Origin: Promethearchaeota archaeon
GTDB lineage: Archaea > Asgardarchaeota > Lokiarchaeia > Sigyniarchaeales > SOKP01
Direction of reading: 5' to 3'
Assembly: GCA_048938895.1 (NCBI GenBank)
Contig: JBHLLU010000046.1
Location: 1 to 32,348, forward strand
Length of the DNA: 32,348 nt
Shown: in pieces, positions 1,479 to 30,177 of the stretch
Layout: the number at the start of each line of letters is the position of its first letter
Position numbering within the stretch: position 1 is the stretch's first letter
Made by a program: the position numbers and the translations under genes
Notes under the pieces: model-generated
What the model was told of the DNA's origin: nothing
What the model saw: only the letters and a program-made list of their open reading frames with translations
Database searches by the model: none

Positions 1479-1503
1479 AAATTTCAATAGGGAGTTAACA
1501 ATT

Positions 1504-1872: not shown

Positions 1873-1876
1873 GAGA

Positions 1877-2245: not shown

Positions 2246-2261
2246 GGAGGATTGAGAAATA

Positions 2262-2603: not shown

Positions 2604-2716
2604 ATTAAATTAAAAAAATTAATTAATAGATTTTTATAAAAATCTGGATAAACCCAGAAAAAATAGATAATATAAACAACAAATAGTAAAAAAAAAAAAA
2701 AAAGAAGGTGTCATAT

Positions 2717-3139: not shown

Positions 3140-3182
3140 AATTAATTAAAACAATTTTTTTTTATTTTATATTTCAAAAAAG

Positions 3183-3746: not shown

Positions 3747-3749
3747 AAT

Positions 3750-4667: not shown

Positions 4668-4668
4668 A

Positions 4669-8370: not shown

Positions 8371-8372
8371 AT

Positions 8373-10838
8373 ATGAGTTTTGAATTATTAAGGAAAGAGG
8401 TAATTGATGCGGGATTATGTCAAGGATGTGGATTATGTGCTGGTTCATGTAAACATATAGAAATGGATATTTTACGTCCGACATTAAAAGATTATTGTAT
8501 CCTTGAAAGAAATGGTCAGGACTGTGGTAAATGTTATCAAAGCTGTCCACAAGTAATTCAGAAGAGATTCGAACAAAGACAACCTAAAGCTGTATATTCA
8601 TTACGAAGTAAAGACTCCACAATATTAAAGAAAGCAGCAAGCGGAGGAGTAGTAACCACCCTAGCAAAAAATCTTCTAGAAAATGAGGAACTTGCCGAAA
8701 TTGTAATGGTTCAAGATGTTGATGATAAACCTCAAGCAGAGATTGTAACTGATCCCGATGAAGCAGTAGAGAAAGCTGGTGTTGTCTATGGACGCTCAGG
8801 TGTTTTAGAAAAATTAGTTAACGTTGTTGGTAAGACCTTCGAACCTATAGGTATTGTAGGAGTACCTTGTGAAATGCGAGGTGCTGCCGATCTAGAGAAA
8901 GAAATGAATAGAGAAATCCTAAAAATTGGTTTATTCTGCAATTCTCATATGCGAACAGAACAGACTGATAAGGGATTAATTTGTTCTCCATGTTGTAATG
9001 GTTGCCCATCAGGAGTAAATGCCCAAGGCTATATCTCTTTAATTAGACAAGGACAATATCAGGACGCTGTTGATTTAATTCGTGAAAATAATCCACTTCC
9101 TTCTATATGTGGAAGAATTTGTACTAATGAATGCGAGCATGGATGTACTTTAATTGGAGATGATCATCCTGTAGCAATTCGCGAATTAAAGAAATTTGTA
9201 ACAGAATGGGAAATTGAGCAATCTATAGAATTAAAATCAAAGAGTAAACCCAAGAAAAATGCAAAGAAAGTAGCAATAATAGGTTCTGGACCAGCAGGAT
9301 TGACAGCAGGATATTTTCTGAGAAGAATGGGGTATGCTCCAACCATTTTCGAAAAGTCAGACCAAACAGGAGGAATGTTGAGGTTTGGAGTACCACAATT
9401 TAGATTGCCTAATTATGTTTTAGATTATGATATAAATCGGATCAAGAATTCTGGAGTCGAAATTGTTCTTAATAAACCATTAGGACCAGAAATGACTATT
9501 GATGACTTAAAGAATGAAGGATACGAAGCTATATTCATAGCTACTGGGCAATATAAACCAAGAACATTACATTTAGAAGGAGAAGATTTACCTAATGTAC
9601 ATGTAGCTATTACATTTCTTATGGATAGAAAGTATCGCTACTGGGAAAACAAAGAAGAATTTAAGGGAAAAAGTATTGGAATAATTGGTGGAGGTCCTGT
9701 TGCCGTGGATGTTGCACAAACCGCTCTTAGATTAGGCGCTGAAAAAATTCATCTCGTCGATATCATGACTGAAGAACAACTTGAATTAACTCTAAAAGAA
9801 ATCCCTGAAAAAGAGCGAGAGTTTATGGAATATCACTTTACCACATCTACTTCGAAAATTACTAAAAAAGATGATGATAAGCTAGTGTTGAATTTTTATA
9901 AAATCAAATGGGGTGCTCCTGATGAGACTGGAAGAAGGTCTTTTGAAAAAATCAAGGATTCAGAATATGAAATTCCTATTGATTCGATTGTAATTGCTAT
10001 TGGCCAAGCTGTTGATTTTGACCAAATTGATATCGCTACGGATAATAAATTAGAAAAGGAACGTAATAAAATTAAAGTGAATGAAGTGACTTTCGAAACG
10101 AACATTCCAGGTGTATTTGCGGGAGGAGATATTGTAAACAACTCAAAAGCAGTAGCAATCGCAGCAATTGCGCATGGAAAAGAAGCAGCATTGTCTATTG
10201 ACAGGTACATAAAAGGTGAAAGTTTAATTGAAGGCAGATATAAGCAAGATAAAATGTTCTTTAGAGGTCCAAAAAAACCACCAAAAGATTACTCTCCAAA
10301 ACCAGAGACATTAAGCGAGGCAACTGAAGATATTGTTTGGAGTTTTGAAGAAGTTGAACAACAATTTAATGAGGAAATGGCTCTCCAAGAGGCACGTAGA
10401 TGCTTAAGTTGTAATCATTTCTGCTCCCATTGTCAAGATTTCCCTGCTATTTATTCTGATTTAACTGCAGGAGAAGTTGGATCTCAAGAAGGATTTACTA
10501 CTGTAGTAGTCTGGACTGATAGAGGGAAAGAAATTATTGATAATGGGATCCAGAATGGTCTATTTGAAGAAGGAGAAGTAAATAGTGAAGAATTAAATGA
10601 AGCAATCAATCTTAAATCGAAAAGAGAGCTCTTAACTTTCGAAAAAACACCTAGGCAGCAAGTATTGGATTACATTACTCTTCAAGGACCGACTACGATT
10701 ACCAACATGGCTAAGAAATTAAATTTAGATCCTAAAAAAGTACGATATGAAGCCCTTCGGTTAGCACAAATGATGATGGTTGAGATGAAAGTTGACACTG
10801 GAATGCAAGAACCAATTTTTACTTTAATATGTGATTAA
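8373..10838 (+). CDS. FrhB/FdhB-like protein with inserted GltD/NfnB-like FAD oxidoreductase and C-terminal winged helix
   Basis: Ferredoxin and FrhB motifs (SGGVVT, VGVPC, IGLFC), then SPCCNGCP...CGRIC...CE...IGSGPAG...GVFAGGD...EARRCLSC, then the FrhB C-part (CSHCQDF..SDLTAGEVGS..GFTTVVVWTDRG), then a wHTH-like tail. Confidence 0.85.
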   Translation: MSFELLRKEVIDAGLCQGCGLCAGSCKHIEMDILRPTLKDYCILERNGQDCGKCYQSCPQVIQKRFEQRQPKAVYSLRSKDSTILKKAASGGVVTTLAKNLLENEELAEIVMVQDVDDKPQAEIVTDPDEAVEKAGVVYGRSGVLEKLVNVVGKTFEPIGIVGVPCEMRGAADLEKEMNREILKIGLFCNSHMRTEQTDKGLICSPCCNGCPSGVNAQGYISLIRQGQYQDAVDLIRENNPLPSICGRICTNECEHGCTLIGDDHPVAIRELKKFVTEWEIEQSIELKSKSKPKKNAKKVAIIGSGPAGLTAGYFLRRMGYAPTIFEKSDQTGGMLRFGVPQFRLPNYVLDYDINRIKNSGVEIVLNKPLGPEMTIDDLKNEGYEAIFIATGQYKPRTLHLEGEDLPNVHVAITFLMDRKYRYWENKEEFKGKSIGIIGGGPVAVDVAQTALRLGAEKIHLVDIMTEEQLELTLKEIPEKEREFMEYHFTTSTSKITKKDDDKLVLNFYKIKWGAPDETGRRSFEKIKDSEYEIPIDSIVIAIGQAVDFDQIDIATDNKLEKERNKIKVNEVTFETNIPGVFAGGDIVNNSKAVAIAAIAHGKEAALSIDRYIKGESLIEGRYKQDKMFFRGPKKPPKDYSPKPETLSEATEDIVWSFEEVEQQFNEEMALQEARRCLSCNHFCSHCQDFPAIYSDLTAGEVGSQEGFTTVVVWTDRGKEIIDNGIQNGLFEEGEVNSEELNEAINLKSKRELLTFEKTPRQQVLDYITLQGPTTITNMAKKLNLDPKKVRYEALRLAQMMMVEMKVDTGMQEPIFTLICD

Positions 10839-10872
10839 TTAAATTTAAAATATTACCAAGAGGTTAAACAAT

Positions 10873-11109
10873 ATGAAATATGATATGGAATTGAATGTTT
10901 GTGGCTCTGTATGCCCTGTACCTGCTTTAAAAACCAAAAAACAACTTATTAAAATGAGACCTGGTACAGTTTTAAAAGTTATAACAGACTACAAACCGGC
11001 AAGCGAATCTGTTCCACGAGATTTGGCTAAAACTAAGCATAAACATTTAGGAACAGAGTTTATTGAAGACGATGAGCAATGGTACATCTATTTTGAAGCA
11101 GTAAAGTGA
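10873..11109 (+). CDS. tusA: Second TusA/SirA family sulfur carrier
   Basis: LNVCGSVCPVP...GTVLKVITD; GAGGT SD. Confidence 0.9.
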   Translation: MKYDMELNVCGSVCPVPALKTKKQLIKMRPGTVLKVITDYKPASESVPRDLAKTKHKHLGTEFIEDDEQWYIYFEAVK

Positions 11110-11431: not shown

Positions 11432-13351
11432 TCAAGCGAAGTGCTTTTCAATTAATGTTCCAAGACTCTCCCAATTTTCCGATACTGAACAAGATTCTTC
11501 TAGATTTTCAATCAGAATTTGGTAATGGTTATCAAATTCTTCAATGAGAGTCAAAAGTTTTTGATGAAAAATTGTCAAGTTTTCTTTTACAATTAAAGCA
11601 AATATAATTTGGTTTGTTGTGTTAAAATCGAAGATTATTTTCCTATCTCCATGATCTATTATCTTGATTAATCTTTCAGCTTGGATTACCTCTTTTAAAA
11701 TAGTCATCATTCCAACCAAACCACCTGAGATTAGAAGAGAATCATTTTTTTTCTCGATTTCCATAAATGGATAATCATAAAGCAGAACTCCTGAATTACA
11801 AAAGATGTAAATTTGTAGTAGGAAGTCTGTCCAGTTAATTATTGGTAATCTTAATATGAATTTTGAACCCTCATTTCTTCCTTCGGATTCAACAAGAATT
11901 TGACCTCCATGTAAATCGATAATTTCTTTTGAAAAATATAATCCCAAATAGAAATTTTTTAGATTTGATTTAGTTCTTGATGCAAAAAGTGTTTTTTTCT
12001 CTTTTTCATTTAAATTCACACTTTCATTTTTTAGTATAATTTCAGCAAAATCGTTATTTTGCTGTAAATATATGGAAATCTCACTTTTTTTTGAAGCATT
12101 ATTAATAATATGAAGCAGAATATCCTTAATCACCTGTTTTATTCTATGCTTATCAATTTCAGCATACAAATCTTCAGCCAAATCTAAATTCATTGTAAAA
12201 TTTAGCTTTTTTATTTTTATCATTGTCTCATCTACAGATTCAGTAATGGTTTTAACAAGACTCTCAATTTGTCTTTTTAGCCTTATTTTCTCAGTTTCTA
12301 TTCTAGAAATATCAACTATCCGCCCAACTAAGTTCATAGATTTTTTTCCTCCTTTTTTTATCATTTCTAAAAGTTTTATAGCGTTTTGGTCTAATTTGTC
12401 TTTATATGAATCTAAAAGTGTCTGTGATGCATCAAACATATCATTTAATGGTGCTTTCATTTCTTCTGAAGTTTGAGCTGTTAATTTTTTTTTCATATCA
12501 TCAATTTTCCTTAACCGTTCGTTCTCCCCTCTAATGATATTGTCCACTAATTTCCTTTCAGTTATATCTTTCATCAAAACTTGAACATATTTTTCGTTTC
12601 TAAATTTTAAAGAAGAAAAGATAGCTTCTATAGTAGAACTATTAGCTTTATCATTTATAAATTCAAATTCTACAATTTCACTCAATTCAAAATTAATAAC
12701 ATTATAAATCAACTCATCACACGAATCTATGACTTCTTTAGATTTTGGGAAGAGATCAAAAAAATTCTCCCCTATAAAATCTTCTTTTGATCTTTTTAGA
12801 TATAATTCTGCAGCAGTATTACAATCAAAAATATTCTTATTCGCTTCAAGTAAAAATACCGAAAATTGAAGATTATCAACAAAATTTCTAAAAATTTCTT
12901 CTGAATCTTTAAAGGAGTGTTCAATTTTTTTTTTATCTGTAATATCGCAAATTATATCTATTAATGCAGGTTGTCCATTAAAAGAAAGAACAAAAGCATT
13001 ACTGAATTCAAAAATCTTTTCTTCTGTCGAATTAAGATTAGTATATAGAGCTTCAAATTTACTTATTGTATTATAATTTATTTTATTAAAACAACAAGAT
13101 TCACAAATAATATTTTTATTCATCATCACCTCAAAACAAAGATTTCCAATCTGATTAGTTCCAAATTCATCTTCAGCTTTCTTATTCATATACAATATTT
13201 TCATATCTTTGGAAATAATAACAATTAAATCATTACTATTTGATAAGATAAAATTCAACAGCGCTTCAGATTCTTTTATTGGATTCTCTGGATTCTTGAA
13301 TTTTATTATACTTCGGTTTATATGTTCGTTCAATATTCCATTCTCCACCAA
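11432..13351 (-). CDS. PAS-PAS histidine pseudokinase with C-terminal longin-like domain
   Basis: Two PAS/PAC domains ending in DIT. H-box reads TSEEMKAPL (no His). N, G1 and G2 boxes are degenerate, but HGGQILVESEG..GSKF is retained. C-terminus IYIFCNSGVLLY...DSLLISGGL...IDHGDRKIIF. Confidence 0.82.
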   Translation of the reverse strand: MVENGILNEHINRSIIKFKNPENPIKESEALLNFILSNSNDLIVIISKDMKILYMNKKAEDEFGTNQIGNLCFEVMMNKNIICESCCFNKINYNTISKFEALYTNLNSTEEKIFEFSNAFVLSFNGQPALIDIICDITDKKKIEHSFKDSEEIFRNFVDNLQFSVFLLEANKNIFDCNTAAELYLKRSKEDFIGENFFDLFPKSKEVIDSCDELIYNVINFELSEIVEFEFINDKANSSTIEAIFSSLKFRNEKYVQVLMKDITERKLVDNIIRGENERLRKIDDMKKKLTAQTSEEMKAPLNDMFDASQTLLDSYKDKLDQNAIKLLEMIKKGGKKSMNLVGRIVDISRIETEKIRLKRQIESLVKTITESVDETMIKIKKLNFTMNLDLAEDLYAEIDKHRIKQVIKDILLHIINNASKKSEISIYLQQNNDFAEIILKNESVNLNEKEKKTLFASRTKSNLKNFYLGLYFSKEIIDLHGGQILVESEGRNEGSKFILRLPIINWTDFLLQIYIFCNSGVLLYDYPFMEIEKKNDSLLISGGLVGMMTILKEVIQAERLIKIIDHGDRKIIFDFNTTNQIIFALIVKENLTIFHQKLLTLIEEFDNHYQILIENLEESCSVSENWESLGTLIEKHFA

Positions 13352-13356
13352 GATTA

Positions 13357-14910
13357 TTATGTAATATTTAAATTTAATTCATTCATCCATTCATTAATAG
13401 TTGGGGGCTCAACGAGCTCAAAAAAAATTATAAATTTACTTCCTTTAGTATAGTCACCTTCAATTTTATTTTGTACGCAAATATAACCTTTGTATTTATC
13501 CACAATTTTCTTTACTAATGATAGTCCTAATCCCATTCCATATCCGTTTTTTTCTGTTTTTTCAGTTCTTTGAAAAATATTTTTTTTAATTTCGGGTGGT
13601 ATACCTCTTGCGTTGTCTATTAATTCAACTTTAAGATATTCATTCCCATGCTTTCGTACTTTTGAGAAATATATTGAAATCTCTATAATTGAGCAATCAT
13701 TATGCAATACCGAGTTTATTAGGATATTATCAAAAATCTCTTGTAAGAAATCGTTGGCCCTGATGTATATAGGTTTTTCAAAATGAAAAACTTCGATTTT
13801 AATTCTTTTATTCTGAAATCCATTAGTAATGTAGTCTATTGATCTTCTTAATACATCTCTGACATCCATCGTTGTCAAGTCTTGTCCAGTTCCTTCAATT
13901 TCAGAAATTCGCCTGACATTAAAAGTTAGCTTTGCTGCTCTTTTAACTTGTTCTTTAGCAATATTAACTATTTCTGAGATGTTACTCTTAAATTTAATCC
14001 CATTTAATTTATAAGCTATTAATTCAAGAGAAGAATTTATTATCTGAAGAATATTATTCATATCATGGGTAAACAAGTCTTTGAGAAAATTCGCTTGTTT
14101 GTAGGCTTTCTGATATTTCTTTTCTGATTTTATTAAACTGTTTTCTGTTTTTTTTCTATATGTTATATCTCTTATTATCTCAATTACCGCGGGTTCACCC
14201 TTGAAATTTAATATTGGAGAGCATTTATATTCCAAATATTTTTTTTCTTTTGTCTGAGAATTTATGAAATGTTTTTCACAGGTAATATTATTATTATAAT
14301 TTTTCATTAATTTGTTAAAAGAACAATATTCACAGGTGTCATCTCTATTCATTAAAACTTTATAGCACAACTCTCCTATATGGAAATTTCCAAAAATCTT
14401 TTTTGCTTTTTGGTTCATGTATAAGATTCTTAAGTTTTTCGAAATAACAATTACAGATTCATCAATATTTGATAATATTAGATTTAACTGTTCTTCCGAT
14501 TGTCTAATTTCGATTTTGTGTTTTTCTTGTTCAGTGATATCTCTTCCAACTTTTACAATTTGCTCAACTATTCCTTTATTTGTTTTGACTGGATATGCTA
14601 TCAACTCTAAAAATATATCTTTTCCATCTTTGTAATGAGTGTGTATGGATTTGCTTAAATTTCCTGTTTTTATAACATCTATTAAAGGACATTTACATTC
14701 TGGAGGTTTACAAATATGATTTAAACCATGTGTGAATTTATAACATTTCTTCCCAATAGCATCGTCTTTAGAAGTTTTGTATTTCTCACAGAATGACTTG
14801 TTTACATCAAGTATATTGTAACTCGTATCCAAAATAGTTATTTCCTCATAAATTGAATCAATTATTAATCGTAGATCTTCAATTTTGTAATTATTTTCTA
14901 TTTCACTCAT
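13357..14910 (-). CDS. Cytoplasmic PAS-PAS sensor histidine kinase
   Basis: Two Cys-rich PAS domains, H-box FTHDMNN, N-box FDNILIN, G1 IDNARGI, G2 GMGLGL. Confidence 0.92.
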   Translation of the reverse strand: MSEIENNYKIEDLRLIIDSIYEEITILDTSYNILDVNKSFCEKYKTSKDDAIGKKCYKFTHGLNHICKPPECKCPLIDVIKTGNLSKSIHTHYKDGKDIFLELIAYPVKTNKGIVEQIVKVGRDITEQEKHKIEIRQSEEQLNLILSNIDESVIVISKNLRILYMNQKAKKIFGNFHIGELCYKVLMNRDDTCEYCSFNKLMKNYNNNITCEKHFINSQTKEKKYLEYKCSPILNFKGEPAVIEIIRDITYRKKTENSLIKSEKKYQKAYKQANFLKDLFTHDMNNILQIINSSLELIAYKLNGIKFKSNISEIVNIAKEQVKRAAKLTFNVRRISEIEGTGQDLTTMDVRDVLRRSIDYITNGFQNKRIKIEVFHFEKPIYIRANDFLQEIFDNILINSVLHNDCSIIEISIYFSKVRKHGNEYLKVELIDNARGIPPEIKKNIFQRTEKTEKNGYGMGLGLSLVKKIVDKYKGYICVQNKIEGDYTKGSKFIIFFELVEPPTINEWMNELNLNIT

Positions 14911-14923
14911 GAGTTTATCATGT

Positions 14924-15190
14924 TTACTTATAATTAGTTAATATTATAGTTCGCAAAAACTCTTTATATCTTGAACGAAGAGTAACAATTATTCCAACGA
15001 CTTTTTTTTCTATTTTTTTTTGATATAATATTTTTGGCTTTGAATTATTTTCTTTATTTAATTTCTCGATAAAGTTAGAGTCTTTCTCTAAGATCAATAA
15101 ATTTTTTATTTCCTCAATATTACTATTTCTAATGTTTCTTTTTTTTTTTAAAAATTCAACATAGCTCCCGATTTCAATTAAGCAATTCAA
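14924..15190 (-). CDS. Hypothetical protein (doubtful)
   Basis: Fills the gap between co-oriented genes, but is low-complexity K/N/I-rich with a TTG start and no motif. Confidence 0.3.
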   Translation of the reverse strand: MNCLIEIGSYVEFLKKKRNIRNSNIEEIKNLLILEKDSNFIEKLNKENNSKPKILYQKKIEKKVVGIIVTLRSRYKEFLRTIILTNYK

Positions 15191-15207
15191 TTTTTTCCAC
15201 TTTTACT

Positions 15208-16017
15208 TTATGATTCTGGTTTTATAAACTGTTTTAAATCAAGGAATTTTTTCTCATTAAATATCTCCTTCTCTTTTACATAATATCTACAAGTTTGCTT
15301 TTCTAATCCAGATACATAAATCTTTTTCTTATCACACCAATAAAGTCCCGTCGGATTTGGATTGAAGGCAAATTTACAATCTGAAGAAATAAATTCCTTT
15401 TTTTCTTCCCTCCAGTTAAAATAATCAAATAATCTTTTGCATAATTTTAAGGAGTTTTCATTATATGGGTAACACATTATACAGTGCGTTCCAACTTCGG
15501 TCTTTCTTAATTTTATAGGGATAAACCCTAAAGTACTAAAAAATTTTAGTTTTTGTTGCTCACATTTAGCTACTAATAAGAAAACTATGTAATCTTTACA
15601 TTTTTCAAGTTCATTTTTAATCATAAAATTAGCTAAATATGTACCTAATCTTCTTCTTCTATAATTCCATTTAATCTCAATGGTGTCCCAATAAAAAAGA
15701 TAAGTTCCTTGATATATTGATAAGAAAATTAAATTTAAACAACCAACTATTTTATTAAAGCCATTTAAAATATAATGAGATTTATTTAAATAACCATAAT
15801 GCCACTCGTATGTATCTTTGATATTATCAAAAATTTTTGATGATAACTCTTCCTTCCGGTAGATTTTATGATCATATTCTTTTAAATTTCCTATTTTTTC
15901 TAAAAAGAAAGCATCATTTCTTGTGATTCTGGAGATACCCGGGGTTTTATCATCATAAGGTTCTTCACAGTCCATTTTACTTTTAATTTTTTCAATATCA
16001 TTGCATATATTTTCCAT
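15208..16017 (-). CDS. GNAT family N-acetyltransferase with C-terminal three-Cys module
   Basis: Motif A-like IEIKWNYRRRRLGTYL and motif B-like KFFSTLGF; C-terminal DCKFA...WCDKK...TC. GAGGT SD. Confidence 0.78.
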   Translation of the reverse strand: MENICNDIEKIKSKMDCEEPYDDKTPGISRITRNDAFFLEKIGNLKEYDHKIYRKEELSSKIFDNIKDTYEWHYGYLNKSHYILNGFNKIVGCLNLIFLSIYQGTYLFYWDTIEIKWNYRRRRLGTYLANFMIKNELEKCKDYIVFLLVAKCEQQKLKFFSTLGFIPIKLRKTEVGTHCIMCYPYNENSLKLCKRLFDYFNWREEKKEFISSDCKFAFNPNPTGLYWCDKKKIYVSGLEKQTCRYYVKEKEIFNEKKFLDLKQFIKPES

Positions 16018-16093
16018 TTTTAGAAGACCTCTTTATGATATCACCAGCTAAATTTTACAATCTAAATGAAAGGAATTGTAAATCTGTGATTAT

Positions 16094-16543
16094 CTATGGT
16101 ATAGTGCTTATACTGCTTATATTTTCGTCTTGATCAGCTTCCATGAAATGTTTATATAATTTATGAATAGTCTGATTTAATTCAAATTGAATCACACCCA
16201 AATTTAAAAATAGTGGAAACATGAGTGCAAGCCTTATGTCTTCAGTCACATATTCAAGATGGATCACAAAAGCTTCGTTATCAAGCTGATCTCCTGCCTG
16301 AATAGAAATTTGTTTAATAAAATTTTCTTCTCTAATTATTTCAACACTATTTTCTGCTAAGGTAACAATACTAGCGCATATCGCTGCAATACTTTGGAAA
16401 AATTCATCATCTTCATTATTATTAGCTCCTTCTATTGTTATAATAAAGCCATCTTCTGTAAATAAAGTGGAACATACTATACCAGTTCTTTCTCTAAATG
16501 ATTTTAAAATATTTTGAATTTTACTTTCTCTTAGATTAGCCAT
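16094..16543 (-). CDS. Roadblock/LC7 (MglB-like) domain protein
   Basis: GIVCSTLFTEDGFII...IAAICASIVTLAE...NLGVIQFEL; overlaps the GTPase stop by 8 nt. Confidence 0.85.
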   Translation of the reverse strand: MANLRESKIQNILKSFRERTGIVCSTLFTEDGFIITIEGANNNEDDEFFQSIAAICASIVTLAENSVEIIREENFIKQISIQAGDQLDNEAFVIHLEYVTEDIRLALMFPLFLNLGVIQFELNQTIHKLYKHFMEADQDENISSISTIP

Positions 16544-17186
16544 TTTGAACTATTCCCTCCCTCTTGATTGTATTATTTTCGTTTGTCCCGTTTAAAATAA
16601 TTTTGCTTACATGAATAATCGCATCTTTTATTCCAATATTATGTTTAGCAGAAGTTGAGTATACTTGCTCTCCAATCATATTTGTAATCACTTCACATCC
16701 ACAATAATCATCTCTATCTGCTTTATTGGCAATTATCCTTATGGGGATATTTTGTCCTAAAACCGCACGAGTTTCTTCTAATATCACTAAACCGTTTCCT
16801 ATATTCACCAAATCACAACCATCAATTAGAAGAATTACTCCATCATTTCCTTTTGCTAGAATTTTTCGAACCGCAGAAAACTGCAATTGCCCAGGACACC
16901 CCTTTAGCTCTATATTTAACGCATGCCAACCCGAATATTCATCTTTATCTCTTAAATATTCAGTCTTATTCATAATCACACCTTCTGTTTTAAAATCCAA
17001 ATTAGGTCTAACCCAAACTAACCTCGCTAGGTCAAATCCTGTTGTAGTATGAGTTTTTTCATCATTATAGGCATAAGCTAATTTTTTCTCAACAGATATA
17101 GCTTTATCATCAAGAGTGTGAATCAATGTCGTTTTACCTGAATTAAAAAAACCTGTTATAAAAATTTTAATTTTATCCCTCTCCAA
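16536..17186 (-). CDS. Small GTPase, MglA/CvnD-like
   Basis: G1 GFFNSGKTT, G2 TTTGFD, G3 GCPGQ, G4 NKAD, G5 SAK. TTG start. Confidence 0.9.
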   Translation of the reverse strand: MERDKIKIFITGFFNSGKTTLIHTLDDKAISVEKKLAYAYNDEKTHTTTGFDLARLVWVRPNLDFKTEGVIMNKTEYLRDKDEYSGWHALNIELKGCPGQLQFSAVRKILAKGNDGVILLIDGCDLVNIGNGLVILEETRAVLGQNIPIRIIANKADRDDYCGCEVITNMIGEQVYSTSAKHNIGIKDAIIHVSKIILNGTNENNTIKREGIVQNG

Positions 17187-17592
17187 TTTATATTCCCACT
17201 TCCCTTCTTGATAAAAATGTAAACTTTTTCACACACTCAATTAATAAATCGTGGTATTAGTGAGATACTTTTATTTTATTAGTATTTTCCTCACTAATAA
17301 CATCTTATTTAGTATATTTAAACCTATGCTTTGTTTTTATTTGTATTATTATAAAGTAAAATAATTGATATTATAAGGAGAATTTAATCAAAATGAGTTT
17401 ATTCTAATTGAAATTGGTTTTATGATAAAAAAAGGAATATATTGCAGATTTATTTATTAATTTTGATCTTTTCTTGTAATAAACACATTTAAATATAAGT
17501 TACTTTATGATTCTTTATAAGGAATTTAATTTAAAATAAAAAAATTATCATAAATAAAATAAAAAATAAAAAAAATATGAAGATGAGTTACT

Positions 17593-18063
17593 ATGCCAAA
17601 CTATAAACAATTGTTAGATATGTCAAACGCAACTCTAGTAGCGATGGGAGAGGCAATGATAAATATGGGATTAAATATTCCCTTAGTATGGAACGAAATA
17701 GCAAATGCATATGGAAATAGTGCCAAAAGCATGCTAAACGATCTTGGTTTGAATATTGAAGGCTCAGATGTGAAATCAATTACTGAAGATTTTACTAAGA
17801 AAATTAAAGAAACTGGTTTTTGCCAAAGGGCAATTATTATTGAAGCCACGGACGACAAAGTTGTAATTGATCTTGGAGAATGTATCTTTGGTTCTGCAAC
17901 AAAGAAATTTAGGGGTACTGATCTAAATTTCATACCTCCCTGTCCAATGATGGGAGTCCTATATAGTGCTATTGAAAAACACACAGGTAAAAAAGGGTTT
18001 ATTGAATCATGTTTATGGAAACCTGAGGAAAACACATCTGTATTTACTGTTTCTTTAGAATAA
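17593..18063 (+). CDS. V4R-like (MetOD1/Bet3-related fold) domain protein
   Basis: Helical N-half, then VVIDLGECIF...PPCPM..VL..AIE...SC...SVFTV, matching the Cys spacing of V4R-type domains by eye. Confidence 0.6.
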   Translation: MPNYKQLLDMSNATLVAMGEAMINMGLNIPLVWNEIANAYGNSAKSMLNDLGLNIEGSDVKSITEDFTKKIKETGFCQRAIIIEATDDKVVIDLGECIFGSATKKFRGTDLNFIPPCPMMGVLYSAIEKHTGKKGFIESCLWKPEENTSVFTVSLE

Positions 18064-18079
18064 GGAGGATTGAGAAGAA

Positions 18080-18205
18080 ATGGCAAAATCAGATTGTAAA
18101 TTTGCTGGAGATGAAAATTCGGACGGATTAGTATGGTGCGATAAAAAAAATATCTATGTTTCAGCGAAAGAAAAGGATACATGCCCTGATTATGATAAAA
18201 AATAA
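18080..18205 (+). CDS. 41-aa three-Cys microprotein MAKSDCKFAGDENSDGLVWCDKKNIYVSAKEKDTCPDYDKK (not in ORF track)
   Basis: ATG 18080 after AGGAGG and TAA at 18203-18205. Fits the intergenic gap. 23/35 ungapped identity to the GNAT C-terminal module (15280-15384). Confidence 0.88.
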   Translation: MAKSDCKFAGDENSDGLVWCDKKNIYVSAKEKDTCPDYDKK

Positions 18206-18227
18206 TACTAAAAAGAGGTAGACGAAA

Positions 18228-18593
18228 ATGAGTGCAAAAGAAGAAAAAATAAAGGACATCTTACTAGAACTAGAAAGGAATTCAGAAGTTTCCAATAGTG
18301 CTATAGTTTCATTAAAAGGCCAAATGATGGCAAGTGCTTTACATAAAGATGTTGATGAAAGAGCAGTCGCTGCGATGACTGCTGCTTTAACATCTGTAGG
18401 GAGTAGAGTTGCTGATACATTAAATTCAGGTAAAACTGGATCAATAGTTATAAGTGGTACAGATAAATTAATAGTATTACAACAATTAACCCAAGCCGTT
18501 CTAATAGCCTTAGCTCCTGCTGATGCTAAAATTGGGTTAATTGATTTCGAAATAAATACAGCTCTAGACAAAATAAAAATGGTTCTAGGATAA
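18228..18593 (+). CDS. Roadblock/LC7 (MglB-like) protein
   Basis: SAIVSLKGQMMASAL..DVDERAVAAMTAAL...IVISG...AKIGLI; canonical roadblock pattern. Confidence 0.93.
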   Translation: MSAKEEKIKDILLELERNSEVSNSAIVSLKGQMMASALHKDVDERAVAAMTAALTSVGSRVADTLNSGKTGSIVISGTDKLIVLQQLTQAVLIALAPADAKIGLIDFEINTALDKIKMVLG

Positions 18594-18697
18594 AGATGAG
18601 AATTAAATAATAAATTTTTTTTTTAAATTTTATATTCCATACCAGGAAAAAAATAAAGATTATTATACAACTATTTGTTGTAAAAGGTGAGAATGAC

Positions 18698-19147
18698 TTG
18701 TCAGAAATAACTGATAATTTAATAAGTTTATTAGATGATTTTATTACATCCACAGGGACCAATAGTTCTTGTTTAATAACTGAAGATGGGCTAGTTATTG
18801 CAGTTAATAGTAAGCAAGATGAAAAAGAAGAGGAGATTAATTATAATTTTGCTGCAATATCAGCTAGTATTTTATCAATGGCAGAAAGAGGAATTGAAAT
18901 CATTAATACAAATAAAATCCTTGAACAAATTAAAATTGACGCAGGTTTAGATCAAAACCTTGATGCTGATTTTACAATTTTAATTACAAGGGTTTATTCT
19001 AATGTATTATTACAAATAATTTATCCAAAAAGAATAAACACAGGCTTAATTCATTTTGAAACAAATAAAATAATAAAGCAAATAAAAGAAATTATTCAAA
19101 GTGATACTTCCAGATCGCTTTTTACAAATTTAGGATCTTTGACATAA
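18698..19147 (+). CDS. Roadblock/LC7 domain protein (paralog of 16094-16543)
   Basis: SCLITEDGLVI...FAAISASILSMAE...NTGLIHFET. TTG start after AGGTGA. Confidence 0.87.
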   Translation: MSEITDNLISLLDDFITSTGTNSSCLITEDGLVIAVNSKQDEKEEEINYNFAAISASILSMAERGIEIINTNKILEQIKIDAGLDQNLDADFTILITRVYSNVLLQIIYPKRINTGLIHFETNKIIKQIKEIIQSDTSRSLFTNLGSLT

Positions 19148-19201
19148 ATATATAAAATTTGATTATATAAAAACTAATAAAAATTTTGAAGGGATCTAAA
19201 A

Positions 19202-20647
19202 ATGCCAAATAGTGAGGATGATACTATTAAAAAAGAAGATATAAATCATAATGTTTATCAAGATCAAGATGTAAACGTGGTGGATTTAAAACAAGCGGAG
19301 AAATTTGATAAAGGAGAAAATACGATTCCTAACCTTGAACATGTTTTTAATGATATATTTACAGATATTACAAATAGAGATAATTTTGACGAAGAATTTA
19401 TAGATAAAATGGAATCACATAATAACCATAATGGTATTGAACCTGAGCTAAAAAAGGAATTAGAAAATGAATCCATGGATTCCATTCAAGAAGATTACAA
19501 CGTTCATGAGCATAAATTTAAGTTAACAAGAGAATTGGAACTTTTTCATGAGAGTAGAATAAAAGAATTAGAAGAAAAAATTAAAGAATATAACAATAAA
19601 TATCAAAAATTAGAGGATAAGATTCAGGAATACCAGGAAAAAAACCAAGCTTTGATAATTAAGAGAGAGGAATTAGAAGAAGTTGTGAAAAGTTTTGAAG
19701 AAAAAAAAAATCTATTAGAGATAAGAAGAGAGGAATATAGAGAACGGAATCAACAATTAGAGAAAAATACAGCCGAATTCACTAATCGTAATATGAGATT
19801 ACAAGAAGCTAGAGAACAATTTATGGCTTTAAGTAAGCAAGTAGAAGAAAAAAAAATAGATTTAGAGAAAAGAGAAAAAAACATTGAAAAAAGGCAAAGA
19901 GCTTTTAACAAAGATAAATTTGAATTTGAAAAAAATAAAATAGAATTCGAAAAAATTAAATTAGAATATGAAATGGGAAAAGCAGATTTAGAAATCAAGT
20001 TACAAAAATCAGATATTAAAAATTATGAAAAAGAACCCAAAGATGATGAACATAAACAAATAATCGTAGAAAAAGAGAAAGAAATAAGGGGCAAAGCAGA
20101 AATTTTAAAAGACATATTGCACCAATTAATGAATGATGGGGGATTTAATTCCTGTTATTTAATTGATGGGAAAGGAATGTTGATTTCTGAATATTCTAGA
20201 ACTAAATTTGATACAGTAGCAATCGGGGCAATGTTTTCATTGATGAGCACAAATTTGTTAAGAACAGTAAACAGTTTAAACTTGTTAGAATTAAAATATT
20301 TTAAGTTTTCTTCTGCGAATGGGGAATTTATGCTTAAAAACATTAATATCATGAATTATGAGAGAAATTTTATACTTTTAGCATATTTTGATGAATCTGA
20401 CTCCTTTATACCTAAACTTGAACAAAAATTTGATAAAAAAAAGATGAAAAGAATTATAAGAAGTGTGAAGAAAGATTTTAATAAATTTGGAAATGGGAAT
20501 AAAATTTCTTGGATACTTGATAATTTGGTAGAAAAGGTTAATTTTCTAAGACAAAAAAGCAAAATGATGGAAAAAAATATTGAAGCCATAAGGTTAGATG
20601 CTTTAAACACTACTTCAAATCAAATAAAAGGATTATTTGAAAGTTGA
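19202..20647 (+). CDS. Acidic N-terminus, long coiled coil and C-terminal roadblock-like domain
   Basis: E/K-rich heptad-like region of about 170 aa, then GFNSCYLIDGKGMLISE...DTVAIGAMFS. Confidence 0.75.
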   Translation: MPNSEDDTIKKEDINHNVYQDQDVNVVDLKQAEKFDKGENTIPNLEHVFNDIFTDITNRDNFDEEFIDKMESHNNHNGIEPELKKELENESMDSIQEDYNVHEHKFKLTRELELFHESRIKELEEKIKEYNNKYQKLEDKIQEYQEKNQALIIKREELEEVVKSFEEKKNLLEIRREEYRERNQQLEKNTAEFTNRNMRLQEAREQFMALSKQVEEKKIDLEKREKNIEKRQRAFNKDKFEFEKNKIEFEKIKLEYEMGKADLEIKLQKSDIKNYEKEPKDDEHKQIIVEKEKEIRGKAEILKDILHQLMNDGGFNSCYLIDGKGMLISEYSRTKFDTVAIGAMFSLMSTNLLRTVNSLNLLELKYFKFSSANGEFMLKNINIMNYERNFILLAYFDESDSFIPKLEQKFDKKKMKRIIRSVKKDFNKFGNGNKISWILDNLVEKVNFLRQKSKMMEKNIEAIRLDALNTTSNQIKGLFES

Positions 20648-20807
20648 TGAGTTGGATAAAATAAGAATTGTTAAAAACTAAATTTTTTTCAATGATATAA
20701 TAGAAAAAATCATAAATGTAGACTGCACCGATATTCTAATAATGTACTTAGAAATTTATCTATGTGTTGGTGCATAAGATTACAGATTATAGGAAATTGG
20801 TTGAAAA

Positions 20808-21563
20808 ATGATGGGATTTGAACAAGAGACTAAAAAAGAAGAGAAAAGTTCTAATCAAGATAAACAACGGATTGGGTTACTTGTTTCTGAAGAAACTAAA
20901 ACTAGATGGCAAGATTTTGCGAATACTCATAATGTTACGACTATTTCTAAGTTAATTAGAATGGCAGTTGACTTTTATATCGATTATATCTTAAAAACGC
21001 CATCAGAAAGGGATTTTGCCCAACTTTCTCATAATCTAAGGGAATCATTAACATCCATTAAAGGCTTTTCCCAGTTAATAATAGAAAAATTTTCTAACAA
21101 ATTAGATCCTGATATCCTACTGAGAATTAAGGAAATATATAGCCAAAGTCTCTTACTTGAGAATAATATAAATGAAATTCAAAATTATAAAGAATTTGAA
21201 AATATCAAATATGATATTTTAATTATTGAAGATGATGCACCAACTATTATGGTTTTGACGGACTTTTTTGAGCTTAAAGGATATGTTTGTAAGGGTGTTT
21301 TAAGTGGTATTAAGGGATTAGAAGTATTGAACAGGAGCACGCCAAAATTAATATTGTTAGATGTATTTTTAAATGATATTAGTGGATATGAAATTTGTTA
21401 TAAAATCAAATCAAATGAAAATCTTAAAGAAATTCCCGTTTTTTACATTACTGCAATACCAGAATCAGAAGTTGTTGAAAAAGTAAAAAAAACAGGAGCA
21501 GATGGATTTTTTCTAAAACCTTTTAATTTTTCTCAATTCGAAATCTTATTAGATTATTTATAA
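20808..21563 (+). CDS. Response regulator: RHH-like, HisKA dimerisation and REC domains, no ATPase domain
   Basis: RIGLLVSEETKTRW...ISKLIRMAV; SHNLRESLTSIKGF; IIEDD...LILLD...ITA...KPF. Confidence 0.88.
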   Translation: MMGFEQETKKEEKSSNQDKQRIGLLVSEETKTRWQDFANTHNVTTISKLIRMAVDFYIDYILKTPSERDFAQLSHNLRESLTSIKGFSQLIIEKFSNKLDPDILLRIKEIYSQSLLLENNINEIQNYKEFENIKYDILIIEDDAPTIMVLTDFFELKGYVCKGVLSGIKGLEVLNRSTPKLILLDVFLNDISGYEICYKIKSNENLKEIPVFYITAIPESEVVEKVKKTGADGFFLKPFNFSQFEILLDYL

Positions 21564-21815
21564 ACATCATAAGATATTATTATTTTTATTAAAGAGTGTC
21601 TTAAAACTCTAAAAAATTCTAAAATATATTCAAAATATTTGTTTTTAAATAGAAATTATCAAGTAAACAAGTAATTTAAAAAGCACTTCTCCCTATTTTG
21701 TAAAAGTTTTTTATTAAGGAAAAGAATATTATACATAAGAAAAATATTTGTGTATGTGTTGTAAATCACTACAAATGAAAAGAAATCAGATGAGGTTAAA
21801 AGGATAGGTATATTA

Positions 21816-22499
21816 GTGCCTGAAGATACTAAAAATAAATGGGAAAAATTCGTCGATGAAAATGAATTTACTACTATTTCAATGCTAATACGAAAAGCAG
21901 TTAATTTTTATATCGATTCTAAACCCAAAATCTCGCTTATTAATAACATTTCAAAGTTTACACATGATTTGAAAGAACCTCTTACTTCAATAAAAGGTTT
22001 TTCTCAATTAATACTTGAACACGAATCAGATAAGATAAACCCAAATATATTATTAAGAATTAAAGAAATTTATGCTCAAAGTGTATTTCTTGAAAATAAA
22101 ATTAATTTTATTATTAATGAGTTCAAACCTCAAAGCCAAACATATGATATTTTAATTATTGAAGACGATTCTTCAACAATCATGGTTTTAACTGATTTTT
22201 TTGATATTAAAGGATTTTCTTCATTCGGTGTCACAACAGGGAATAAGGGATTAGAAGAATTAAAAAGAATAACCCCTAAACTAATACTATTAGATATTAT
22301 TTTACCAGATATTAGTGGTTATGAAGTTTGTAAAAAGATTAAATTGGTTGATAGATTTAAACATATACCCATTTATTATATATCAGCAATCCCAGAATCG
22401 GAAGTTAGTGGAAAATTACAAGAAACTGGAGCGGAGGGATTCTTACGTAAACCATTTAATTTTCCTGATTTTAAAATTCTAATGGAATATTTAAATTAA
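21816..22499 (+). CDS. Paralogous RHH-HisKA-REC response regulator (true start may be upstream)
   Basis: THDLKEPLTSIKGF; IIEDD...LILLD...ISA...KPF. Homology to the paralog continues upstream of the GTG. Confidence 0.87.
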   Translation: MPEDTKNKWEKFVDENEFTTISMLIRKAVNFYIDSKPKISLINNISKFTHDLKEPLTSIKGFSQLILEHESDKINPNILLRIKEIYAQSVFLENKINFIINEFKPQSQTYDILIIEDDSSTIMVLTDFFDIKGFSSFGVTTGNKGLEELKRITPKLILLDIILPDISGYEVCKKIKLVDRFKHIPIYYISAIPESEVSGKLQETGAEGFLRKPFNFPDFKILMEYLN

Positions 22500-22502
22500 T
22501 TT

Positions 22503-25500
22503 TTAAACTATAGGAAGTGAAAAATAAAAAGAAGAACCTTTATCCCTCCCTTCAGATTCGACCCAAATCTCTCCTCCATGCATTTCTATAATTTTTTTTG
22601 AAATATATAAGCCTAATCCCGAACCTTCAGAAATTACATCATATCCCTGACCATAACGTTCAATCTTTCCGAATTGTTTAAATATTAGGCTTCTTTCTTC
22701 TTCTGAAAAACCAATCCCGTTATCTTTTATTGAAATTATAATAAAACCATTATTAATTTCTGAGTTGATTTCTATTTTTCCATTGGAGGGTGTGAATTTT
22801 ATGGCATTACTTAAAATATTATTAATAACATTGTGTATTTGGTCTTTTTCAACAGAACATATTAAATTATCTGATAACTTGAGATTCAATGTATGATTTC
22901 TCAACTTTAAAAATCCTTCTAATTCATTCACACATATTTTTATTAAGAGAGATAAATCCTCCTTAGTTTTTTTTAACTCGACCATTCCAGATTCCAATTC
23001 TGCTGTTTTTAAAATGTCGTTAACGAGAGATTCAAGCCGCTTACATCCAATTCTAATTTGATTCACTTTTTTTACTGTATAATCATCAAGTTTGTCATTA
23101 TGCATTTCTAATAAAAGATCAGAAAATCCTTTAATAGAGACCAAAGGTGTTTTTAATTCGTGAGAAGTCCTTCTTAACAACTCGGATTTGAGATTATTTA
23201 ATTTAATTAATTCTAGCTCGGCTTTTTTACTTTTAGTTATATCTCTTAGTGATATTTGTATTATTTTTTCCCCTTGAAGTTCTATTAGATCAAAACTAAT
23301 TGCACCAAAAAATTCTACATTATCTTTTCTTCTTAATTTGACCTCATAATCGTGTAATTTCCCAAATGATCTCATTAATTTCACAATCTTTGAACGTTGA
23401 CTTGGATCAGAAAAAATGGAAGATACCCCAACTTTATTTAAATCTTCAACAGAAAAACCAGTTAATTTTACCATCGCATCATTGCTATCTAATACTTTAC
23501 CTTCAATCGTAGTAAGACCTATCCCCACAGGTGAATTATCAAAGAGTAAGCGATATTTTTCTTCAGATTCTCTTAACTTTTCTTCAGTTTCTTTTAATTC
23601 CGTAATATCAATGGCAATAGCTCCTACTGAACTTACATCTCCTTTATCAGCATATAAAGGAAATTTAACAGTATGAAATTTATGTTTTTCACTTTTAGCT
23701 ATTACAATTTCTTCAAATATTTCAACTTTATTTGTGTCTAAAACTATCTTATCATTATCGAGTAATTTTTGTGCTACTTTTGGATGATTTGGATGAATAA
23801 AATTATCAGTTTTTCCCAATATTTCTTTTCTATCTAATCCAAATAGATCTTCATAATACTTATTTACAAGTTGATAAATCCCATTTGAATTTTTTACAAA
23901 AACAAGAGCTTGAGCATTTTCTATGAAGGAATTTAAGAAATCATTAATTTTTTTTTTCTCTTGCTCAACAACTCTTCGTCCTGTAATATCAATATTCGTA
24001 ATAAAATCTGCAGGTTTTCCGTTAAAATTAATTGTTTTTGAATAGTTTTCTACCCAGAATTTTTCCCCAGTCTTTTTAATACATCTTACCTCATAATTTA
24101 TAATGACTTCTTTTTGTCCTAATTGCTTCTTAGTTGCTTGTTCCTTGACAATTTTTATAAACTCAGGATCAATAAGTCTTAAAAACCCATACGGTTCTAA
24201 ATTCAATAATTCTTCAACGGTGTATCCATACATCTCAGCCAAACGTTTTGAAGCATATTTTATAACATTATCTTGAATGATCCCTATACCCATTAGAGAT
24301 TGTTCTGTGAAGTTTCTGAATTTTTCTTCAGATTCTTTTAATTCTCGCTCTGCTTTTTTTCTTTCCGTGATATCTTGACCAATATTATACATAAAAAATT
24401 CATTATCTAGTTTAATTAATGATGCTTGTGAATTTATCCAACATTTTTTTCCATCCTTTCTATTAGGTATAAATTGTAGGGGTGGTAGCATTTCTCCTTT
24501 AAATAGTAATTCCATTTTATTTTCTAGTAATGGTAATAATTCAGGTGGATTCATTGGCATTTCTCTAAAATTTTTTCCTATGAATTCTTCTTTCGGGTAT
24601 CCAAAAATGTCTACAGCACTATTATTACAATCAATAAAATTTCCATCCTTATCAAATAGAATGATGTAATAAGGGCTATTTTCAAATAAATGTCGATATT
24701 TTTCTTCGGACTTTTTTAATTCATGTTGTACTAACTTGCGATCAGTAATGTTTAATGCATATTCTATCATCTGGACGACATTTCCATTCTCATCTAAAAT
24801 TGGATATCCGTAAATTTCATAAATTTTCTCATTTTCCTCTCTATCGTAATGTATATGTTCTACTATGCAACTTTTTTTGGTTTTTTTAACTTCATCAATT
24901 GGGCAAATACAAGGCGTTGTACAAGGTGTATCACGATTATGTGTTAGTTTATAACAATATTCTCCCTCTCTTAGACCCGTAGAAGAAGCAGTGGAATTAG
25001 CTAATATAACCTTATAATCCTTAACATTTATTACATAGAAAGGATGCGTAAGTGATTCTAAAATGTTGTTAAGAAATATATTCTGTTTTCGAAATTTTTC
25101 TTCGGACTTTTTTAATTCATGTTGTACTAACTTGCGATCAGTAATGTTTAATGCATATTCTATCATCTGGACGACATTTCCATTCTCATCTAAAATTGGA
25201 TATCCGTAAATTTCATAAATTTTCTCATTTTCCTCTCTATCGTAATGTATATGTTCTACTATGCAACTTTTTTTGGTTTTTTTAACTTCATCAATTGGGC
25301 AAATACAAGGCGTTGTACAAGGTGTATCACGATTATGTGTTAGTTTATAACAATATTCTCCCTCTCTTAGACCCGTAGAAGAAGCAGTGGAATTAGCTAA
25401 TATAACCTTATAATCCTTAACATTTATTACATAGAAAGGATGCGTAAGTGATTCTAAAATGTTGTTAAGAAATATATTCTGTTTTCGAAATTTTTCTTCT

Positions 25501-30071: not shown

Positions 30072-30177
30072 AAGAGAAATTCCATTATTTGCTTAAGATC
30101 ATCAGATTTAATATCAAATTTATCTTAATATTACATTAAATATACTCGTAGGGTTACAATCCTGATTAATTGAAAAT

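Follow-up and report, generated by a model that had tools for sequence, protein, structure and literature searches.

Gene content of the divergent island

The window analysed here is a stretch of 32,348 nucleotides from the genome of a Promethearchaeota archaeon of the Lokiarchaeia (GenBank assembly GCA_048938895.1, contig JBHLLU010000046.1, positions 1 to 32,348 of the forward strand). This genome (G000) comprises 4.65 Mb in 174 contigs, and the G+C content of the window is 28–30%. The window carries a gene island that combines a small GTPase with roadblock proteins, a protein of the TRAPPC3/Bet3/V4R fold, a microprotein, a GNAT acetyltransferase, a longin-fold domain and two-component proteins, and that probably encodes a signalling unit centred on the GTPase. 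An initial annotation, made from the sequence alone, had listed the genes between 11432 and 22499 in two arms around a gap of about 400 bp. Open reading frames (ORFs) and Pfam scans confirmed all listed genes at their coordinates, the divergent layout and a gap of 406 bp. Relatives were sought by a scan of one genome per species, which yielded 24 related loci in 21 Asgard metagenome-assembled genomes (MAGs). Proteins of the window were compared with these loci by tblastn. The sequencing runs on record for the stretch are DNA of sediment metagenomes, with no RNA run among them.

The GTPase gene opens the left arm (16536–17186, reverse strand, 216 aa, TTG start). In an alignment of 17 orthologues, with L035 left out, G1 GxxxxGKT, G2 TTTGFD, G3 GxPGQ, G4 NKxD and the G5 Ser are invariant. 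The nucleotide-binding and catalytic motifs are all retained. The G5 Ser is followed by Ala in 16 of the 17, and the third G5 position is mostly Lys, otherwise Met, Gln, Leu or Asn. The G3 motif reads G96-x-P98-G99-Q100 without an Asp, x being Cys, Val or Ser and not Thr, and G4 reads NK[ASQN]D. T47-T48-T49 are invariant and have no adjacent Arg; judged by the motif, they would correspond to the Thr of MglA groups 2–5. Wuichet and Sogaard-Andersen describe MglA groups 2–5, to which group 4 of archaea belongs as well as the GTPases of conservons, by a GTPGQ motif with Thr replacing the Arg finger, a G4 of [NT]KxD, a G5 of SA[KL] and a coupled MglB gene with a conserved Asp-Gly pair (PMC4316618). 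A family-profile search of the PDB placed Thermus thermophilus MglA second (4.2e-9, its VPGQ aligned by HMMER) behind 8oun_A, a 'GTP-binding protein' (1.7e-10), with Arf and Sar1 close behind MglA. NCBIfam small_GTP gave 36.5 bits, below its cut-off. Motifs and PDB profile match assign the protein to the MglA type with the marks of groups 2–5, in line with the roadblock-pairing class proposed initially; its place inside the MglA clade is putative. A paralogous GTPase (G000:C152:24552-24881, also L003–L020; frames of 226–244 aa, 31–39% identity over residues 90–198) was present in 24 of 24 genomes sampled from the same genus, in contrast to the island GTPase.

Four proteins of the island were assigned to the roadblock fold. 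The RbA gene (16094–16543, reverse strand, 149 aa) follows the GTPase gene. The two genes have 8 nt in common, both in the window and in the closed genome of Ca. Harpocratesius repetitus (G032; class Promethearchaeia, equal to Lokiarchaeia, and of the same order), and RbA appears translationally coupled to the GTPase. Three more are encoded in the right arm: Rb1 (18228–18593, forward strand, 121 aa), RbB (18698–19147, forward strand, 149 aa) and the C-terminus of a 481-aa protein (19202–20647, forward strand). Rb1 exceeds the cut-off of Pfam Robl_LC7 (E 3.8e-10, 39.8 bits); RbA and RbB stay below it with 17.6 and 18.8 bits. In hhalign comparisons with Rb1, RbA reached a probability of 95.9% (E 6.4e-9), RbB 96.8% (E 3.1e-10) and the C-terminus of the 481-aa protein 86.4% (E 4.7e-6), the weakest of the roadblock assignments. 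RbA is MglB/CvnB-like: its profile matched a Robl_LC7 protein (7f8m, 5e-4), MglB (6h5b, 0.002) and CvnB5 (3leq, 0.0028) in the PDB. RbA has a nearly invariant D31 and an invariant G32, and in RbB both D30 and G31 are invariant; the match of these pairs to the Asp-Gly column of MglB is putative. RbB shares the E-D-G motif type with RbA, and each is the sole further match of the other in the genome, RbB being a paralogue of RbA. Alignments of the roadblock, response regulator and longin proteins drew on loci with complete genes. Robl_LC7 matches number 25 in the 4.65 Mb genome, and a span of 2.9 kb in the island holds three of these, so the clustering exceeds chance.

The 481-aa protein has a charged N-terminus, a middle region, the roadblock-like domain and a helical tail. 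Residues 101–290 consist to 56% of Glu, Lys, Arg, Asp and Gln, and to 1% of Pro and Gly. PADLOC reported a JetC/MukB-like coiled-coil match (E 4.4e-4). Composition and this match suggest a coiled-coil-like middle region. Searches of PDB profiles with the C-terminus gave roadblock proteins as leading matches (E 0.023 and 0.046).

The right arm starts with a gene for a 156-aa protein (17593–18063, forward strand). Its AlphaFold model (pLDDT 94.0, pTM 0.88) has four N-terminal helices, then two more helices and four strands. Best Foldseek matches were TRAPPC3 (E 4e-4), the sensors PoxR/DmpR/MopR, H-NOX and Thor-TRAPPC3 (7yh3), with TM scores of about 0.5–0.6. At fold level this is the two-layer TRAPP/Bet3 architecture, which is common to V4R and H-NOX. 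The Pfam TRAPP model PF04051 matched neither the protein (E ≤ 0.1) nor any place in the genome (E ≤ 1). Pfam V4R PF02830 matched six other places in the genome and not this protein, and the NCBIfam and Pfam scans assigned it to no family. Because neither the TRAPP nor the V4R model matches, the resemblance is one of fold, not of family. The earlier label 'V4R-like' therefore holds for the fold predicted by AlphaFold and compared by Foldseek, but it does not hold as a Pfam V4R or TRAPP assignment.

The V4R-fold family forms 71 clusters in a large protein collection. The named ones are all 'hypothetical', all derive from Asgard MAGs, and no cluster carries a precomputed Pfam domain. An alignment of 39 of these 71 proteins and the one of G032 showed C97 and C117 in 39/40, C77 in 34/40 and C140 in 26/40 sequences. 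In the ESM Atlas, used as a lead only, the nearest clusters carried PF27323 RdxA_C (21–66% of members), a putative rubredoxin C-terminal domain found mostly in methanogens and bacteria; a TRAPP cluster ranked 20th. If this lead is true, a rubredoxin-like Cys domain fused to a V4R-type fold would parallel the pairing of the V4R-fold protein with the microprotein. At L033:421-1998, a 525-aa ORF has a weakly TPR-like N-terminus and ends in the V4R-fold sequence. A microprotein ORF was not detected after this V4R part, and the arrangement may reflect either a fusion or an error of assembly or reading frame.

In 23 of 24 loci, the gene immediately 3′ of the one for the V4R-fold protein encodes the microprotein (18080–18205, forward strand, 41 aa). 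All 25 aligned sequences share D5, C6, W19, C20, E31, C35 and Y38, and Pfam and NCBIfam scans of the microprotein gave no match. The same domain forms the C-terminal tail (residues 205–251) of the GNAT acetyltransferase of the left arm (15208–16017, reverse strand, 269 aa). This was seen in all five aligned GNAT orthologues, and the invariant Asp, three Cys, Trp, Glu and Tyr are common to both. Among 1.84 billion representative proteins, a profile detected 32 members of the domain: 22 are free proteins of 39–77 aa, eight are long (156–475 aa) and two others were unsorted. All eight long members are GNATs that carry the domain at their C-terminal end, in some cases combined with HEAT repeats at the N-terminus. 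Microprotein and GNAT tail represent a new small domain family which occurs almost only as free protein or on GNATs. The shared domain ties the GNAT to the binding target of the free microprotein. GNAT orthologues in L022, L031, L032 and L035 have 486–502 aa, and the window copy lacks the extension. In L031, Pfam identified the extension as N-terminal HEAT/PBS-lyase repeats, as in the representative protein P0076; L022, L032 and L035 were classified by length alone.

Two kinase-like proteins complete the left arm. The soluble sensor histidine kinase (13357–14910, reverse strand, 517 aa) has two PAS domains, a DHp domain with its His and a CA domain (Pfam PAS_9, PAS_4, PAS, HATPase_c). Five of five orthologues retain the H-box His together with the G1/G2 boxes, and in their PAS domains C41, C56, C67, C72, C74 as well as C182, C193, C196 and C230 are invariant. 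An orthologue lies between pseudokinase and GNAT genes in five of the nine two-armed loci. The pseudokinase (11432–13351, reverse strand, 639 aa) matched Pfam PAS, HisKA (below cut-off) and HATPase_c. Its annotation as a pseudokinase was borne out by ten of ten orthologues, in which the phospho-acceptor His is exchanged for Glu, Lys or Gln and the G1/G2 boxes have degenerated or are missing. The PAS cysteines C72, C83, C87 and C177 are invariant in all ten. Orthologues occur in nine of nine two-armed loci and in L037.

The pseudokinase ends in a domain of about 135 aa (residues 505–639). The model has moderate confidence (pLDDT 75.3, with residues 27–39 below 50) and a beta-beta-alpha-beta-beta-beta-alpha topology. 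Foldseek matches were AP sigma, zeta-COP, Sec22b, VAMP7, SRX and Mon1-Ccz1 (E 6e-4 to 1e-2), besides AP mu and TRAPP Bet5/Trs23, which upholds the longin domain proposed for this protein. A PDB profile search gave nothing meaningful (best E 0.25), no Pfam or NCBIfam family was assigned, and hhalign found no profile similarity to roadblock proteins (0.5%). Since the sequence-profile searches were negative, the longin call rests on the predicted fold. In the ESM Atlas, again a lead only, the closest clusters were unnamed archaeal ones and a 'Roadblock/LAMTOR2' cluster with Fuz_longin_1 (score 0.88).

The right arm ends with two tandem response regulators (RRs), RR1 (20808–21563, forward strand) and its 58% identical paralogue RR2 (21816–22499, forward strand), which has a shorter N-terminus. 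RR1 matched Response_reg with E 2.4e-18 and HisKA with 22.6 bits, below cut-off; it combines a putative ribbon-helix-helix (RHH) domain, a DHp domain with His and without ATPase domain, and REC. Among 12 sequences of the family, D142, D185 and K237 are invariant, T215 is nearly so, and the DHp His is present in 11. The REC domain and the DHp His of the predicted RHH-HisKA-REC architecture are well founded by this, and the RHH domain has sub-threshold matches only. Other loci have a single RR gene after the coiled-coil gene, with a second copy farther downstream in L031. RR orthologues in L022, L026, L027, L029 and L031–L035 have a motif of about 45 residues, rich in Glu, Lys, Trp and Gly, N-terminal of the putative RHH. 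RR1 has a remnant of this motif and RR2 has none.

A 2082-aa multi-PAS histidine kinase converges on RR2 (22503–28751, reverse strand). It has many PAS stretches, HisKA (45.1 bits) and HATPase_c (88.7 bits), and the phospho-acceptor His and boxes are intact. Related PAS kinases lie in the same convergent position to the RR gene in L022, L027, L029, L031, L032, L034 and L035. This kinase is part of the conserved neighbourhood and the island extends past 22499. None of the island products has a transmembrane-like segment, in agreement with the soluble system suggested before.

The intergenic region (17187–17592) contains an ATTTA(A/T)ATA block that is invariant in ten of ten aligned intergenic regions. 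In the window, it is located at 17488–17497, about 96 nt upstream of the V4R-fold gene, with an inverted copy at 17313–17322. This TATA-like block is a putative promoter element. A G/C-containing inverted repeat within the AT-rich region (17252–17302; 13-nt arms, 92% complementary, 25 nt apart) is no conserved operator, because the other loci lack this inserted stretch. Scans for sigma-70 promoters (77 sites, 80.2 expected) and intrinsic terminators (one site, 3.0 expected) used models not applicable to archaea; the outcome was at chance level.

An 88-aa ORF between the kinase and GNAT genes (14924–15190, reverse strand), omitted from the initial gene list, is doubtful. It is single-copy in the genome and had no family match with a meaningful E value in Pfam and NCBIfam scans. 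Among 24 loci, only L032 shows a partial match (47% over residues 1–54), so the ORF may be no gene. The G+C content falls from 0.33–0.37 to 0.25–0.31 at about 11 kb, the beginning of the island. The left flank (1411–11109, forward strand) holds a redox/sulfur operon according to Pfam, with DsrE-like, CCG-domain (HdrB-like) and 675-aa FAD/4Fe-4S proteins, an Oxidored_q6 subunit, an 821-aa fusion of FrhB and pyridine-nucleotide-disulphide oxidoreductase, and TusA. Past the multi-PAS kinase, at 29430–32145, TPR-repeat proteins of 213 and 655 aa are encoded, the larger with a MalT-like TPR region (Pfam).

Conservation among Asgard archaea

Gene order in relatives, whose absence would have counted against the proposal of the initial annotation, is conserved across the 24 loci. 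The divergent two-armed layout of the window was found in nine. Another nine, including Ca. Harpocratesius, have a co-directional order V4R–microprotein–Rb1–GTPase–roadblock, sometimes with further roadblock-like genes. Five show the right arm alone, their contig or locus beginning with the V4R gene, and the remaining one, L037, is without the GTPase arm. Rb1 follows the microprotein gene in 24/24 loci, a roadblock gene follows the GTPase gene in 18/18, and an RR gene follows the coiled-coil gene in all nine loci that extend far enough. The soluble PAS kinases, the longin pseudokinase, the microprotein-tailed GNAT and the DHp-REC regulators accompany the GTPase module in most loci. A PAS kinase was present in 20 of the 21 loci of at least 7.9 kb, all but that of Ca. 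Harpocratesius; with the same queries, 10.7% of random 20-kb windows of the window's genome had one. Within this genome, the V4R-fold protein, the microprotein domain, the RbA/RbB pair, the coiled-coil protein, the GNAT and the longin tail are unique to the island.

Locus L047 (G178:C139:1-8866) has the V4R–microprotein–Rb1 unit twice, in tandem on one contig. One copy is accompanied by RbB, the coiled-coil gene and a divergent GTPase–RbA arm; the other adjoins a fragment resembling the C-terminus of the pseudokinase.

More distant V4R–microprotein pairs were detected at L048–L050, where a microprotein-like ORF lies directly 3′ of the V4R-fold gene. The V4R genes of L048 and L050 have 22–32% identity, and that of L049 was found by profile alone. 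Their neighbours encode an MIP channel and an REC protein; an MIT-domain protein and a deaminase; and a reductive-dehalogenase-like protein and an AMP-binding enzyme. Because these distant pairs occur without a GTPase among the scanned neighbours, the V4R–microprotein pair is regarded as the older unit, and its union with GTPase and roadblock proteins as later and lineage-limited.

A proposed signalling unit around the GTPase

The best reading of the island is a patchily distributed MglA/MglB-type switch that acquired TRAPPC3-fold, longin and additional roadblock parts and is connected to soluble two-component signalling. For an accessory Asgard signalling unit around the MglA-type GTPase that works by the mechanism outlined below, we estimate a probability of about 60%. 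The mechanism is inferred from gene linkage: PAS sensors would signal to the GTPase by way of roadblock and longin partners, and the outputs would be acetylation and transcription. The roadblock proteins would be dimeric platforms that set the nucleotide state of the GTPase, as MglB does for MglA and Ragulator for the Rags. RbA and RbB would be the likely partners of the type of a GTPase-activating protein (GAP). The V4R-fold protein with its microprotein and the Cys-rich PAS domains may act as sensors, for which a redox signal or a small hydrophobic one is most likely. By its longin tail, the pseudokinase may dock onto the GTPase platform and link the active kinase to it. One output could be transcription through the REC regulators. 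The GNAT may provide another, its microprotein-like tail recruiting the enzyme to the binding site of the free microprotein.

Sensing of a redox signal would have precedents. The redox-dependent behaviour described for MsvR involves cysteines of its V4R domain (PMC3729527), and three cysteines of the OrpR PAS domain bind a [4Fe-4S] cluster (PMC8359166). The Cys clusters of the island PAS domains recall OrpR, and a cofactor is putative here. Roadblock and longin dimers were discussed as bifunctional GTPase platforms in a 2026 study on Myxococcus (PMC13408092).

Conserved gene adjacency makes the V4R-fold protein the likely partner of the microprotein. This is the one pair among the products for which a predicted interaction was computed. 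The V4R-fold dimer with the microprotein scored 0.56, compared to 0.35 for the best of three controls, which is weak support. Agreement between runs is at least 79% of contacts, with a partner pLDDT of at least 73. In the calibration, 58 of 80 solved complexes and two of 110 mismatched pairs reached the mark. At a score of 0.60 or less, it was reached by seven of the 80 solved complexes and by both passing mismatches.

Several observations weigh against a coherent unit of this kind. According to the calibration, so low a pass for the V4R–microprotein pair is more often wrong unless the pairing is likely beforehand. Among ten Pfam-scanned ORFs near L048–L050, a GTPase was not detected and the neighbours are unrelated. 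The distribution is patchy: the V4R family occurs in 40 of 400 Asgard genomes sampled (21/85 genera) and in seven of 53 other genomes of the window's genus, and an orthologue of the island GTPase in one of 40 relatives. In G009, of the same genus, the V4R gene lies at a contig end, and the non-detection of the GTPase there is uninformative. Because of the patchy distribution, the island is considered accessory and without a core function. Both proposed outputs have borderline domains. The window GNAT scored 20.5 bits with Acetyltransf_1, just under the cut-off of 20.7; its L031 orthologue (24.7 bits) and eight of eight related representatives are over it. For the RHH domain of the RRs, the sole two PDB profile matches were ORF56/CopG with E 0.1 and 0.49, and Pfam RHH_1 matched two of 12 members with E 0.019 or worse. 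Finally, L037 has the kinases and the right arm without GTPase, RbA and GNAT, and the core operon of Ca. Harpocratesius repetitus (G032/L044) has no kinase, GNAT or RR within 10 kb. The coupling to two-component signalling is thus frequent but not universal.

The last two loci would be expected if a soluble PAS two-component system and a separate V4R–microprotein–roadblock–GTPase module were neighbours only, sharing at most a promoter region. Such genes are common neighbours, with about six further full-length paralogues of the RR type and 29 PAS or kinase places genome-wide. This explanation is unlikely, though it deserves attention: the frequency of PAS kinases at the long loci far exceeds the genomic background, and the association outlasts the rearrangement of the operon, being seen in divergent and co-directional layouts. 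The longin domain of the pseudokinase also has the fold of small-GTPase platforms (PMC13408092), and this longin form is confined to this genomic locus.

An early form of TRAPP or Ragulator, in which Bet3-fold, longin and roadblock dimers act on a membrane as a multisubunit guanine nucleotide exchange factor (GEF) for remodelling or trafficking, is quite improbable. All three core folds of TRAPP and Ragulator are co-encoded with a GTPase, and Asgard TRAPPC3-like and roadblock proteins form eukaryote-like dimers in the work of Tran et al. 2024 (PMC10933270). However, the GTPase is MglA-type and not Rab or Rag; it lacks the G3 Asp and a C-terminal roadblock domain. The island proteins have no transmembrane segment, a lipidation motif was not noticed, and the Pfam TRAPP model is unmatched. 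The fold of the 156-aa protein is equally that of bacterial V4R ligand sensors and H-NOX, the longin domain is joined to a kinase-like protein instead of being a free subunit, and the surrounding genes are those of two-component signalling. The patchiness within the genus, the low G+C content relative to the left flank and the tandem duplicate of the module in G178 would fit a mobile or anti-virus defence island. Such an island is very improbable, considering that PADLOC gave no match for nine of ten scanned island proteins and that its sole match, the 481-aa protein to JetC, is of coiled-coil type. Pfam scans of the island and its flanks showed no integrase, transposase or nuclease domain, and the domain content is typical of signal transduction.

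Comparison with known systems and significance

The island resembles the MglA/MglB system of Myxococcus and Thermus in its single-domain GTPase with an xPGQ G3 motif without Asp and a coupled roadblock gene (PMC4316618). More than one regulator with a roadblock domain is also known there, as in a bipartite GAP complex (PMC9481161). Differences are the Thr in G2, compared to the Arg finger of group 1, the four roadblock-fold proteins, the TRAPPC3/V4R-fold protein, the microprotein, the longin-pseudokinase and the GNAT. A RomR/RomX-type partner was not noticed in the Pfam scans of the island.

Actinobacterial conservons combine the CvnA kinase, the CvnB roadblock protein, CvnC and the CvnD GTPase. 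They share with the island a GTPase of MglA groups 2–5, a roadblock protein and a histidine-kinase-like protein in one locus (PMC4316618), and the RbA profile matches CvnB5. The CvnC/DUF742 model had no match among the island proteins at E ≤ 0.1. The kinases of the archaeal island are soluble PAS proteins without transmembrane or HAMP domains and end in a longin domain or a short tail; CvnA is a membrane protein with HAMP and a C-terminal LPxR. The G4 motif is NKxD and not the NxFD of group 2, and the island has RRs, which are absent from the conservon as described (both PMC4316618). The 'conservon-like switch' of the initial annotation therefore fits in the sense that the island may act like a conservon, but it is not one.

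For TRAPP, the likeness is the predicted fold of the 156-aa protein, which matches TRAPPC3/Bet3 and Thor-TRAPPC3, and the co-encoded longin domain. Like the Asgard TRAPPC3-like proteins of Tran et al. (PMC10933270), the V4R-fold protein has conserved cysteines suited to a Zn site. It differs by the lack of a sequence-family match and by a partner GTPase that is not Rab. Tran et al. 2024 reported for strain MK-D1 that genes for GTPases, roadblock, longin and TRAPPC3-like proteins are generally not in shared operons, which makes it hard to match GTPases to GAPs and GEFs from the genome layout (PMC10933270). In the island, such genes do share operons.

Ragulator–Rag and EGO also have several roadblock-fold proteins with small GTPases, the roadblock dimers serving as GTPase platforms (PMC13408092). 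The island GTPase is not Rag-like, without a C-terminal roadblock domain, and a LAMTOR1-like tether was not seen. Liu et al. described Asgard NPRL2-like longin domains fused to two-component domains and an operon of LAMTOR1-like, Rab-like and DENN genes (bioRxiv 10.1101/2020.10.19.343400). The pseudokinase-longin protein is of that general kind. The operon members differ from those of the island, and the main text of that preprint includes neither V4R nor TRAPP. The V4R sensors PoxR/DmpR/MopR and MsvR share the fold of the island protein. The latter is a stand-alone protein of 156 aa without DNA-binding or AAA+ domain and is unmatched by Pfam V4R. A search of the full-text literature, with supplements and subscription journals outside its scope, found no published description of this neighbourhood.

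Small GTPases number in the dozens in Asgard genomes, as do roadblock, longin and TRAPPC3-like proteins, and the pairing of regulators with GTPases is unassigned. The island is a conserved exception, in which one GTPase has four roadblock-fold, one TRAPPC3-fold and one longin candidate partners. All of these are small, soluble proteins amenable to expression and testing. A more far-reaching interpretation takes the island products as one machine, in which a microprotein-capped Bet3-fold dimer, the longin domain and hetero-dimeric roadblocks would be both GEF and GAP for the MglA-type GTPase, under control of redox two-component signalling and lysine acetylation. We consider this doubtful. If true, the three folds from which TRAPP, Ragulator and the longin GEF/GAP complexes were later made would already be joined in a prokaryotic assembly, and a cognate GTPase could be assigned for the first time to Asgard roadblock, longin and TRAPPC3-like proteins. 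In the island, 'eukaryote-like' folds are tied to a prokaryote-type MglA GTPase and two-component signalling. This bears on the question whether these folds originally served signalling rather than membrane traffic.

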